A DNA stretch of 64,000 bases from Octopus vulgaris (taxonomy: Eukaryota), in contig OX597836.1 of NCBI GenBank assembly GCA_951406725.2, positions 8,742,001-8,806,000 of the forward strand. The letters run 5' to 3'. A program made the position numbers and the translations under genes. Below the pieces are notes generated by a model that saw nothing but the letters and a program-made list of their open reading frames with translations, ran no database searches and was not told where the DNA came from. This document shows, one piece after another, positions 32,984 through 39,008 of this stretch (position 1 is the first letter of the stretch; each line of letters begins with the position of its first letter).

Positions 32984-33326
32984 TAACCCATGTAGAATTT
33001 ACAGAATTTTTTCTCGTTAATTCTTGTTGTTCATCTTCTTGTCATCGTTGGTGTTGTCATTTTTTTTGTTCCTTCTTTTCACTTCTTCTTCTTTTTGTTA
33101 ATTTTAGCACCCGGTCAAACGGCTCGTGCAGGAGGCTGATGATCAAAGGCTTTCCAGTCGTGGCTGTTGAGTTTTGTTTCGGATATATAGAACTCGAATG
33201 AGTTCTGCGACAGTTCTCTCTGCTTCTACGACAGAGGATTCTCTGCAGAAATAAACACTTCTTCGTCATAACTCCTACCTAAGCAGTCAAGAGAAACACG
33301 AACACCCAGCATACAATAATCTTGTC

Positions 33327-33359
<33 letters not shown>

Positions 33360-33820
33360 CAGTACTGGGAGAATAAGAAACGGAACGAAGCGAACGAATC
33401 GAATCGAACCCGACGCGAAGGCGCTGTCAGACAATAGTGTAATAAATAAAATATATGCATACATACAAACATATATGTACGTACCTACATCTACATGTAT
33501 ATATACATGCATATATAAATATATATACGTGAGTACAGGACACAACAACTAGACGTAGAACTCAACGAGAAACGAAAACGGAAAAACCATTTTTTTACAA
33601 CAGAAAAACAGAGTACAGGACATGCTACACAAGGAAAAATCCCCTATCATCAGCTGTCACTAGTTCGACTCCAGTGTGTTTCGAAGGCAAGACAGGACAC
33701 GACGCGCCAAACTAATCCTTCCTGCGAGAGAATTTAAATAAAATGACCTCGCAGAGGGGTAAAAACAAGCAAGAAAAAAATGTAACACAAACAGGACGTA
33801 AAAACGATACAAATAAAACT

Positions 33821-33894
<74 letters not shown>

Positions 33895-34134
33895 GGCGCA
33901 GGAATGGCTGTGTGGTAAGCAGGTTGCTTAGCAATCACACGAGTTCAGTCCCACTGTGTGGCAAGATAGATGGATAGATAGATAGATAGACAGACAGATA
34001 GAAGTGGATATCCACAAACACAGGCACACACATACGCCCAATAGCCATACATATATCGTAGACATCATGTTTATATGTGTGTGTGTGTCTGCATATATGT
34101 ATATATATATACACACACACACAACACACACACG

Positions 34135-34176
<42 letters not shown>

Positions 34177-34298
34177 TGCATATACACACACACATACATA
34201 TACATATACATATACATATATATAAACATATACACACATAATACACATATACACACACACATACATATATGTATATATATATATACATATATACACAC

Positions 34299-34332
<34 letters not shown>

Positions 34333-34432
34333 GCACATACATATATATATATATATACATACATATATATATATATATACACATACATACATACATATAT
34401 ATATATATATACATACATGCAAACACACACAG

Positions 34433-34466
<34 letters not shown>

Positions 34467-34471
34467 TTACA

Positions 34472-34506
<35 letters not shown>

Positions 34507-34682
34507 GAGAGTGAGTGAGTGAGAGAGCGGGGGCGGTGAGGTAGAGAGAGAGAGATAGAGAGAGGATAATAATTTATGTATTTATTTCGAAAGAGCTTAG
34601 ATATATGCTCTGCTCAAATTTTACACTGAATGCACTTGCATTTGTATGCACGCAGTGCAAACATATGTCGTATATATGTATT

Positions 34683-34714
<32 letters not shown>

Positions 34715-34921
34715 AGTGTGTGTGTGTGTCTTCATTAAATAAACACACCTGCACCCCCTAATATATACATAAACATGTGTGTATATATATATATATATAT
34801 GTATCCGTGTATGTATGTACATATGTACGTATTCATGTATGCGTTTCTACGTATGTATGTAGACATGTCTGTGTATGTACATTATATCATATATATATAT
34901 GTATATGTATATATGTATATA

Positions 34922-34969
<48 letters not shown>

Positions 34970-35663
34970 CATATATGTATATATGTATATATATATATGT
35001 GTATACATATATACATATATGTGTACAGTGTACTTAGAAAAAAATACACTCTCGGAGACATATACAAGCCGCCCCCGCATTGACTCCAACGCACAAATAA
35101 AATAAAGTCTTGACACAGCTCCTCCTGTTTTTTTAACGCAGAAAGCAGCAAAGATTCTAGCAGAGTCTTTTCGTCTTTGACACCCCTTTCCGTTTCTATT
35201 CAACCGGTTCACGTGTGCGTTTGCGCTCTTCTTGGAATATTCAGCGCTCAGTGTTCTTCCAATGGAACCTTGTTTGTTTGTTATTTTTTATTTTTTTTTA
35301 TTTTTTCGTTAGGTGATTCCTTTCGTCCGCTTATTCACTTCAGAGAAGTCTTTTAACGCTGAATTAATTGAACGGCGTGCTGCAGAAAAAAGGGTGGGAG
35401 TGGGGCAAAATTGGTAGCTTCTGATCCCTCGTTATTTTCTCCCTACCTGTTTGAATCCATTACATCGCAAGTATTGCATCATCATTTTGTACAGTTACAT
35501 CATCTTTGGGAATAGAAATTGGTCAGCAGAGTTGTTCTTCAAGTTGAGAGAGTTTGGAACATAATCAGGTGACAGGCACTTTTTATTTCAAGATGTTTTG
35601 CTTCAACTTCGACTCGACTGCTAATTGAGGTTCCTAATAAAATATCTGAATAATTTTTAGAGT

Positions 35664-35966
35664 ACATTATTTACATTATTTACATTTGACGGATATTTGT
35701 CCTCGTCTTGTTTGTTGTTAACATAACGTTTCGGCTGATATACCCTCCAGCCTTCATCAGGTGTCTTGGGGAAATTTTGATCCTGGGTTCTCATTCGAAA
35801 AATACATTAGGAATGAGAACCCAGGTTCGAAATTTCTCCAAGGCACCTGATGAAGGCTAGAGGGTACATCAGCCGAAACGTTGTGTTAACAACAAACAAG
35901 ATGAAGACAAATATCCATCTAATATAAATAATGTACATAATTCCTCATCTCTTAAATATAGAGCTG
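35664..35966. mobile_element. 303-bp hairpin insertion with two inverted hammerhead motifs (Penelope-like pLTR architecture), 13-bp TSD
   Basis: ~130-bp inverted arms; TSD taatttttagagt at 35651-35663 and 35967-35979. Confidence 0.85.
35843..35886 (+). ncRNA. Type I hammerhead ribozyme
   Basis: gcac-CTGATGA-a-ggct-agagggtacatc-agcc-GAAA-cg-TT-gtgt; a mirror copy lies on the minus strand at ~35720-35765. Confidence 0.8.
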
Positions 35967-36082
35967 TAATTTTTAGAGTTTAACTATCAAAATTCATTTC
36001 TCAGTTGGATCCAATATGAAATATTTTTCCACATTAATGTCTAATCTGATAATTTTCAATTTTCAAGAACACGGTGTCTAAA

Positions 36083-36418
36083 ATGGGGCAAAATGAGTAA
36101 TGGCTAATTCCGATGCTTTCTTCTGCAAAGTGCATGTACATATTAGTAAGAAATATACCCTCCAGCCTTCATCAGGTGTTTTGTGGAACTTTCGAACCTG
36201 AATCTTTAGATTTAGTCGTGTTTCGTTAATTGCATATCGTGTGCCATTTTTCCATGATCTTCTTTCGCTTGACCAAGATATGTTAAATTTTTGTTACATT
36301 TCTGATCTTTCTGATGTTTAAGGATCGATATCGATGAGTATGAGTCTGTTTTCAAATGTAATTCTGCAGAAATGAAGGGGTAAATTTACCTTAACTTGTC
36401 TTACTCATTTTGCCCCAT
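36083..36418. mobile_element. MITE-like element with 18-bp perfect inverted repeats
   Basis: atggggcaaaatgagtaa / ttactcattttgccccat; contains a third partial hammerhead-element copy at ~36153-36200. Confidence 0.65.
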
Positions 36419-37503
36419 CTACATTTGTCTTTCACATACCCAAAGAGAACGGAGATAATTTTCTGAAAATAGTGTTCTGAATATGTTATAGTATTTTTAA
36501 TACGTTTAGAGGTCATTTGCTCACCTGATATAGTTTTAGCAAGGTAGTGAACGTTTGTAAAATGTTTCTTCCCCACCCTAAAGTTTAAAAAAATGATGTA
36601 AATATTATTCATTGCGAACCACGCCCTATTTCCCTTAAACAAAACTGACACAGCATCCTAATGGTTTTGCAGCGGCTGGGATTTGCTTCGCATAAGGATT
36701 TTTTTTGATCAGTGGTAGAAATGGTCTTGCTGTACCCAATAGGGTAGCATTCCATTCCTTTGCTTTTTAATTCACGGTCGTGTGAAAAGGCTTATAGCAG
36801 CCAATTCTAATTTCCGTTTTTTCCCAAGTCCAGATTCATGTATCTTGTCTTAATGTATTTTAAAAGGAATGAGACAATAGGACGTGGCCCTTTCGGCGCT
36901 GACGCTTTGGCGCGGCTGACTGGGCGTTCGACCTACCTTAGCGATAGTATGCTCCGGCGCTGCGAACAACAATACACATAAGTGTACGCACACACATACA
37001 CACATACATATATATTCCCACACACACGGACGCGTGCGTACGCATGCATTCATACCAACAAATATTAACATTGAACCGAAAACAGAAAAAAAAAGAACGA
37101 AAGAAAGAAAGAAACAAAGAAAAAAGGGAAAGAAAGAAACAAAGAAGTCAAAATGAACATTACGAAAAACCATTTTTTTTCCAGTACGTGTTTAGAGACG
37201 TGACTAAATGTGGTTTCCATTTCAATTGAGACAGAAGAGGTTTACGTTATCTCCTCCAACCACCACCACCACCACCACCACCACCACTACTACTAATACT
37301 GCTACTATGGAAGTTTCCAATTAAAAAAACAAGTATTGATTTGTGTGAGCGAGAGAGAAGGGGGGAGAGGTGAGTTATGGATGGTAGAGGGGGAAGGAGG
37401 AGAGGGGAGAGTTTTAAAGGAGGGGAAGAGGAGGTGAAAGAAGGGGAGAGAACTAAGAACTAGTTTAATCAATTGTGACTATTGTTGCTCTGTGCGTGGT
37501 TGC

Positions 37504-37529
<26 letters not shown>

Positions 37530-37534
<5 letters not shown>

Positions 37535-37736
37535 ATCCAAACAAGAAAACACACAAAAAAAACACAGCAACGCGAGGACGTGGAACAAATAAAGTATTAT
37601 TGGACGCTCAGGAAAGAAGGGAAGAAGGAGGGTTTAACGTTTCGAGCGGAGCTCTTCGTCGGAAACAAAGGAGAAGGAAAGATCCAGAGAAGGGAAGACA
37701 GAGGAAAAAATATTGCTGGCGGTGCTCACGAGGTCA
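37530..37736 (-). mobile_element. Hammerhead-bearing element family H1 in (TA)n (motif 37632-37666)
   Basis: Minus strand reads gttt-CCGACGA-a-gagc-tcc-gctc-GAAA-cg-TT-aaac; both flanks are (TA)n. Confidence 0.8.
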
Positions 37737-37737
37737 C

Positions 37738-37775
<38 letters not shown>

Positions 37776-38109
37776 ATGTATATATATATACATAATTATA
37801 ATAATAAGGGTTTAGCAACAAGTTGCTTGACCACATACCGAAAATTTTAGAAATAGCAGCCAAAAGACTGCTATCTCTTTTTTGTGCGAAAAATATGTCT
37901 CCACAGATAACAATATTTGTAACTCACACATGGCAAAGAAGAAGAAACATAATGAAATCAAACAGTCTTCGATTAATTATGGACGCGTTTCTGGATCAGA
38001 ATCACAAGATTCATTTCCGATATCAACAATTTAAATTTCGATAATTATAAATCTGAAAATGCTAGGAAAAGTTACCCCTTACATTTCTGACCAAGCGCCA
38101 TCAGAACAT

Positions 38110-38177
<68 letters not shown>

Positions 38178-38208
38178 TAATAATAATAATAAGGAGGAGC
38201 TGTGTGAA

Positions 38209-38546
38209 GGCGCATGGCTGGCTCAGTGGTTAGAGCGTCGAGCTTACGATCGTGAGGTTGTGAGCTCGAATCCCGGACTGGGCTGCATGTTGTGTTCTTG
38301 AGCAAGTCACTTTATTTCACGTTGCTCCAGTTCACTCAGCTGTAGAAATGAGTTGCGACGTCACAGGTGCCAAGCTGTATCGACCTTTGTCTTTCCCTTG
38401 GATAACACTGGTAGCGTGGAGAGGGGAGGCTGGTATGCATGGGCGACTGCTGGTCTTCCATAAACAACCTTGCCCGGACTTGCGTCTAGGAGGGTAACTT
38501 TCTAGGTGCAATCCCATGGTCTGTGTCGTGATCGAAGGGGGTCTCC
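38209..38546 (+). mobile_element. tRNA-derived SINE, group C variant, inserted in (AAT)n
   Basis: tggctcagtggttagagc A box, agctcgaatccc B box, CORE-like cttgagcaagtcacttt. Confidence 0.85.
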
Positions 38547-38580
<34 letters not shown>

Positions 38581-38790
38581 AAGAAGAAGAAGAAGAAGAA
38601 GAAGAAGAAGAAGAAGAAGAAGAAGAAACCCGATGATTGCTTAACTGGCTAAAGCTTCGAAGTCACTGTGGTTTCTATTCTTGCTAACGAATAATAGATT
38701 TTTACTCTACCAAATGTATTGAGTAATCCTTGACTCCAATGTAAATTTTTTTTTTATCATAGTATAATATAAACAGCATGATATATGTAA

Positions 38791-38828
<38 letters not shown>

Positions 38829-38975
38829 CGAAAAAGCTTGAACAAGAATGGAGAAAATCATGTCTTTGATGATTGTACCGTACATTACGGAAGATCTCTC
38901 TTGTGCCAGCATATTTAGAAACAGGAATATTGTACGAAATACCAACCAAACCAATATGTCCGAAAATTCATTCTA

Positions 38976-39008
<33 letters not shown>

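Follow-up and report, generated by a model that had tools for sequence, protein, structure and literature searches.

How does a 303-bp near-palindrome, with a hammerhead-like motif in each of its halves, come to lie inside an older repeat of the octopus genome? The locus belongs to a 64,000-nt stretch of Octopus vulgaris DNA (contig OX597836.1 of assembly GCA_951406725.2, positions 8,742,001 to 8,806,000, forward strand), called here the window; all coordinates are counted from its first letter. An earlier note, made from the letters, had read the structure as a complete insertion of Penelope type with mirror-image hammerheads. With a probability of about 0.9, the hairpin is a single insertion in which two 5'-truncated copies of a pLTR and ORF start stand head to head, likely made by twin TPRT and likely dead. 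The features of the locus are as follows:

35,400 to 36,570, no strand: older dispersed host repeat, the target of the insertion, 70-80% identical to its paralogues
35,651 to 35,663, no strand: left copy of the target-site duplication (TSD), TAATTTTTAGAGT, identical to the right copy at 13 of 13 positions
35,664 to 35,796, minus strand: inverted, tail-less, 5'-truncated pLTR arm, ending in two 9-nt repeat units
35,720 to 35,765, minus strand: left-arm hammerhead motif of minimal type I (core start at 35,760; predicted cut after 35,725)
35,795 to 35,796, no strand: head-to-head junction, a 2-nt microhomology common to both arms, from comparison of the sequence with family copies
35,795 to 35,966, plus strand: direct, 5'-truncated pLTR arm with tail, carrying one 9-nt repeat unit
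35,797 to 35,810, plus strand: unpaired part of the direct arm, the hairpin loop
35,813 to 35,965, plus strand: relic of the first ~50 codons of a Penelope ORF with one in-frame stop, by its match to the N-terminus of protein P0003
35,842 to 35,887, plus strand: right-arm hammerhead motif of minimal type I (core at 35,847; GAAA at 35,875; predicted cut after 35,882)
35,935 to 35,966, plus strand: 32-nt PLE tail, on the direct (right) arm only
35,967 to 35,979, no strand: right copy of the TSD, TAATTTTTAGAGT, identical to the left copy at 13 of 13 positions, from paralogue comparison
36,153 to 36,200, minus strand: 48-bp piece of the Penelope family without a TSD, replacing a similar length of host repeat

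The anatomy proposed in the earlier note is borne out by measurement. The inverted arms, put there at ~130 bp, are 131 nt each (35,666-35,796 and 35,811-35,941) and 90% complementary, with 13 mismatches and 14 nt between them; the duplication is exact over its 13 bp, and the extra tail, given as ~30 bp, is 32 nt long and confined to the right arm. In 17 of the 19 host-repeat paralogues, which were fetched with the right flank, the left flank leads into a single copy of the 13-mer. Because these are empty sites, the duplication is a true TSD and the locus records one insertion event. The word "complete" is right for this event and wrong for the arms, both of which are heavily 5'-truncated. Relatives of the host repeat, at ~80% identity, number at least 40; one motif inside it lies near 35,401 and 36,084 and, inverted, near 36,404.

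To what kind of element do the arms belong? Longer copies join the hairpin unit to a coding region with an RT thumb and a GIY-YIG-type part. In locus L210, where the inverted one-tail layout extends over 2.5 kb, a natural frame of 569 aa with RT, thumb and GIY-YIG-type motifs runs into the 3' UTR, the head described below and the hammerhead unit. A Pfam scan of this frame gave RVT_1 below the cut-off (E 2.7e-6) and no GIY-YIG match; the frame has 2,989 homologues, including full-length proteins of ~830-850 aa, and a GIY-YIG match was obtained in two of the five homologues scanned (P0069 and P0073). The right arm itself reads as 51 codons with one stop; a 44-aa stretch of it shares 48% identity with the P0003 N-terminus (E 4e-8 in a set of 120 proteins). 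When the adjoining part of P0003 was used to find further loci, the unit continued into the ORF in 17 of 20. Judged by these matches, the arms represent the pLTR and the beginning of the ORF in an RT and GIY-YIG element of Penelope/Poseidon type, and the earlier reading of a Penelope-type insertion is thereby tied to a parent. Other features of EN+ Penelope-like elements are present as well: the pLTR with the ORF start is repeated at the 3' end, there is a 30-40-bp tail at one end together with an inverted 5'-truncated copy, and a TSD surrounds the whole insert. By eye, the CX2-5CxxC zinc finger is absent from the RT-EN linker of the L210, L213 and L214 frames; a linker that lacks it is a criterion for Penelope/Poseidon (PMC8557442) and points to the placement of the parent in that group. 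Two further loci, L218 (166-3612, minus strand, contig C31) and L219 (495-3941, minus strand, contig C7), carry near-intact L1/Tx1-like LINE frames of 473 and 675 aa beside a Penelope fragment and are 99.2% identical to each other over 9.6 kb.

How often has the same arrangement been formed? The earlier note had proposed copy number and recurrence of the palindrome as a check, and the family proves to be large: a 33-nt core has 2,222 exact matches, its reversed control none, and head-to-head pairs are common at many sizes. All 40 loci scored match the hairpin in both orientations, at least 40 loci measure ~300 bp, and among 29 other loci, selected by a single arm, an inverted partner lies upstream in 20. 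From 150 loci, 79 head-to-head pairs were assembled, a sample that is enriched for palindromes (22 loci come from the both-orientation set) and holds a few duplicates (L055 twice; L152/L154). Exactly one tail is present in 71 of the 79 pairs. A TSD of 11-14 bp, with a mode of 12-13 bp, flanks 47 of them, as against 4 of 120 swapped-flank controls. The 3' ends of the arms cluster at reference positions 143-150 and 172-175, 25-32 nt apart, and the gap between the arms ranges from ~0 to 950 bp. Among 25 short palindromes there are ~21 junction types (by our own reading), and the junction position of the window recurs in one other of 22 copies (L003). Copies depart from the commonest letter by 7% on average. 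Departures at CpG columns are 3.3 times as frequent as at other columns (0.247 vs 0.075), which suggests methylation of the copies. Loci L091 and L092, which lie 108 kb apart on contig C1, have in common a duplicated Penelope inverted insertion, with an extra ~2.9 kb near the junction in L091.

These pairs bear on a rival idea, in which the whole palindrome would transpose together as a non-autonomous element, either a MITE or a foldback DNA transposon. In its favour are the near-perfect inverted arms and the common outline of at least 40 loci, each ~300 bp in size; against it, 71 of 79 pairs have an asymmetric tail, most TSDs measure 11-14 bp, the distance between arms runs from ~0 to 950 bp, and the arms are continuous with an RT ORF. 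The symmetric TIRs, short fixed TSD and uniform size of a TIR DNA transposon were not found, and the outcome that the earlier note had named as fatal to its own reading failed to appear. Because the junctions vary from copy to copy, the inversion was presumably made at insertion and a MITE is effectively excluded; we give it hardly any weight. It is likely that the head-to-head inversion is made anew each time an element inserts. The arrangement expected of a non-LTR retrozyme, tandem head-to-tail hammerhead units, was also looked for; short tandems occur in a few loci only (L037, L080), and the window copy is head to head.

What mechanism would yield two arms with a single tail? In vitro, the Poseidon enzyme of the anole cuts and extends both strands, and reverse transcription starts at two internal sites that flank the tail (PMC11167929). 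By analogy with this work, the enzyme in octopus would nick both strands 12-13 bp apart in AT-rich DNA, and each nick would prime one cDNA, with priming at the distal site giving an arm with a tail and priming at the proximal site an arm without one. Both cDNAs would end early and then be joined by microhomology, which in the window would be the 2 nt at 35,795-35,796. The hammerhead, which overlaps the ORF start, would simply ride along; if it acts at all, it would do so as a dimer or with the help of protein in tandem transcripts of master copies, and not in the window hairpin. In the window copy, the part of the ORF that follows the tail, which the anole enzyme requires on its RNA (PMC11167929), is missing, and the copy is therefore likely to be dead.

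Were the two arms copied from separate templates? Of 41 scorable pairs whose tailed arm carries one 9-nt repeat unit, 15, the window among them, have two units in the tail-less arm; a few of these calls may be wrong. Repeat number shows no significant concordance between arms (p 0.22). Such discordance is in keeping with separate priming of the two cDNAs; slippage during priming could also produce it. There is also counter-evidence: the arms of one insertion share 71 rare letters, compared with 42+-7 in shuffled pairs, an excess driven by four loci with shared indels or runs of changes. Since rare letters are shared between arms, some pairs come from one template or have been homogenised, and fold-back or later conversion explains these.

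Another aspect of the family that bears on its templates is the place where the arms begin. Between the ORF stop and the hammerhead lies a tRNA-like head of ~75 nt that contains an (AAT)n run and motifs resembling A and B boxes. Its best alignment, among 30 tRNA genes of six isotypes, is to tRNA-Arg(TCG) (z 7.9), and in five loci it falls below the Rfam cut-off for tRNA. Processing of the head by RNase P was rejected by eye, as there is no acceptor stem. In a sample of 151 arms from 89 loci chosen by the ribozyme unit, 81 arms enter the head and 43 reach its first five bases; 33 of the 43 stop there and 10 continue. The stop rate per base is thus ~11% at the head boundary, compared with 0.9% inside the head and 0.3% upstream, and 28 of the 33 stops fall on head positions 1-2, which correspond to position 1 of the tRNA gene. 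Upstream UTR is attached in 4 of 30 loci chosen by the head, and pattern searches gave 2,767 copies of the head as against 316 of the adjacent upstream 36-mer, with patterns unequal in stringency. Both arms of the window stop downstream of the head.

For most short templates, the odds are about even that they begin at the head, likely at an internal Pol III promoter. The pile-up at the boundary fits a Pol III start, and it also fits fold-back at a hairpin at the same spot. The sense strand offers suggestive signs only: over ~2.7 kb, when the commonest letter of each column is taken, both halves are free of TTTT (p 0.016 and 0.026 against shuffles); the p-value rises to ~0.07 once the scarcity of TT is allowed for, and single copies carry private T runs (three in L210). 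A search of the sequence shortly downstream of the tail revealed no conserved terminator. When 47 long arms were compared with 48 head-start arms, no fixed diagnostic column separated them; three columns differ at p<0.02 uncorrected, and divergence is 9.8% in long arms and 6.7-7.8% in head-start arms. A fuller version holds that the pLTR captured a tRNA-derived promoter, that Pol III feeds both the coding element and thousands of SINE-like short copies with the ribozyme, and that a dimeric enzyme twin-primes head-to-head pairs from separate RNAs; we regard this as a rather unlikely account.

Alternatively, the second arm could be a self-primed fold-back of one cDNA, trimmed by the endonuclease at the tail site, with the pile-up at the head caused by hairpin stalling or snap-back on a long Pol II transcript. 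This explanation is a serious one, somewhat short of an even chance. A hairpin of -12 to -13 kcal/mol spans head position 1 in two of the three long copies tested, a short inverted copy of the head with a 2-nt loop precedes many head-start arms (AC in 18 of 48), and at four loci rare changes are common to both arms; palindromes of 18 and 38 bp at pLTR 5' ends have been described, with self-priming proposed (PMC3846280). It is less easily reconciled with the 9-nt repeat discordance, which the window itself displays, with the weak folding of a cDNA that ends at -7 (only ~-2.5 kcal/mol), or with the alignment of 28 of 33 stops to position 1 of the tRNA gene. Twin priming remains the preferred reading for the window.

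Do the hammerheads have any role of their own? Both arms contain a stem I, the CUGAUGA core, an additional A, a stem II of 4 bp that starts with G-C (GGCU...AGCC), and GAAACGUU. By motif reading the right-arm hammerhead is intact, with its core, stems I and II, a palindromic stem III (AACGUU) and an NUH site; in the left one the core is kept and stem I opens with a C.A mismatch. An Rfam search found no hammerhead at E<=5 over 33,000-39,000, only generic hairpin matches below the cut-off, and nothing at gathering score in five family loci; the ribozyme call therefore rests on motif reading. The "mirror-image hammerheads" of the earlier note thus stand as a motif in both arms, with the left copy mismatched and neither recognised by Rfam. 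A pattern search for hammerheads returned almost only the present Penelope family. A few hammerhead-like motifs with an unrelated stem II in L190, L192, L201 and other loci may belong to other PLE families or be due to chance (eight control hits).

A palindrome such as AACGUU without a loop III is the mark of a minimal hammerhead of the dimer type (PMC4209133). The minimal type-I hammerheads of PLEs described there have in common with those of the window the CUGANGA and GAAA core, an extra base before stem II, a first stem II pair of G-C, a palindromic 15.2-16.2 and the lack of loop III. Unlike them, the predicted ribozymes of the window lie on opposite strands, facing one another; they are unable to dimerise in cis, and a single transcript holds only one. 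The insert of 303 nt folds at -196 kcal/mol (z -29.8; none of 100 shuffles as stable), and a fold with the hammerhead stems forced is ~72 kcal/mol worse. The choice between long dsRNA and ribozyme fold that the earlier note offered to a transcript is therefore not one between equals; the ribozyme side is weak also in that a minimal hammerhead requires a second copy in the same sense.

Retention of the hairpin for a function, be it as dsRNA (a substrate for ADAR or siRNA production) or as a working ribozyme, is improbable. The fold is indeed very stable and the core is intact in both arms; across the family, the core is also slightly less changed than other non-CpG columns (0.054 vs 0.075, p 0.048 uncorrected). 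This amounts to selection on the core that is at most marginal, and core conservation among the copies of a single genome says little, since each decays once inserted. Against retention, the arms of the window have drifted 10% apart, in line with the family mean of 12%, and the motifs lie on opposite strands in a hairpin far more stable than the hammerhead. Nor is there an ADAR footprint in the templates as seen in family copies, where A>G does not exceed T>C (0.015 vs 0.020). In four runs of assembled contigs (X15, X16, X17 and X4), matches are dominated by copies of the family. Where copies lie in transcripts, the family could potentially be a large source of long dsRNA.

How does the family compare with known systems? 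As an insertion the hairpin is ordinary, a further member of a class of PLE insertions known from rotifer and fly. Pen2a_Av of Adineta vaga (PMC3846280) and Penelope of D. virilis (PMC2377424) likewise have an inverted, 5'-truncated pLTR beside a direct one, a 31-34-bp tail at one end, a TSD around the whole insert, the first codons inside the pLTR and a palindrome at the pLTR 5' end. For the rotifer, the account gives an inverted pLTR that contains the first codons, a 31-bp tail and a TSD of 8-10 bp (PMC3846280); the mode in octopus is 12-13 bp. The octopus family differs from both in its thousands of very short copies and in the tRNA-like head and (AAT)n run of its pLTR, where TATA/Inr or DPE-type (Pol II) promoters are reported (PMC3846280, PMC2377424). 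PAc, a Poseidon of Anolis carolinensis, shares a hammerhead that overlaps the ORF start, AT-rich targets, and 3' ends at two sites within the ORF, 25-32 nt apart (PMC11167929). The work on PAc is biochemistry and that on octopus sequence analysis alone; inverted pairs and a tRNA-like head are not treated in the consulted parts of PMC11167929.

A Pol III promoter followed by a hammerhead is found in the schistosome Sm-alpha (of the SINE-like repeats Sm-alpha/Sj-alpha, PMC6765202), and non-LTR retrozymes are non-coding pieces related to PLE pLTRs (bioRxiv 10.64898/2026.07.22.740005). Both form mostly tandem arrays, whereas the octopus copies are dispersed head-to-head pairs and the tRNA-like head belongs to the autonomous element itself. 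Penelope families feature in a 2026 annotation of octopus repeats, whose main text does not contain the word "hammerhead" (PMC13282606). In the literature searched, which lies outside Repbase, Dfam entries and subscription journals, we found neither a tRNA-derived head in a PLE pLTR nor twin priming reported for PLEs, a weak negative in both cases. The novelty at the level of the family is modest: a tRNA-like head, which may be a promoter, where most arms that reach it begin.

How PLEs form inverted repeats and tails is posed as an open question in PMC8557442 and PMC11167929. The hairpin is one of thousands of footprints that bear on it, and the 12-13-bp stagger, the one-tail rule and the differences between arms at a template-diagnostic repeat can be tested against the twin-priming model. 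Should the head function as a Pol III promoter, the boundary between SINE and autonomous element would be blurred, and the hammerhead would possibly process an uncapped transcript.

Is the hairpin the only trace of the family at this locus? The third fragment that the earlier note had placed at ~36,153-36,200 is present (90%). In comparison with the paralogues it lacks a TSD and has replaced an approximately equal number of host-repeat bases, and therefore is not an ordinary third insertion; we infer that templated repair is a possible origin. A short shared motif lies near its left join. Elsewhere in the window there are decayed ORF pieces, all on the minus strand, which we take to resemble the end of an RTE-type LINE (47,008-47,484), the end of an L1/Tx1-type LINE (45,868-46,266) and a Tc1/mariner transposase (21,682-22,386). 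Upstream of the host repeat, 35,130-35,385 is a low-copy stretch with single-contig depth in two runs, and within it a pyrimidine tract followed by AG near 35,312 could be a splice acceptor.
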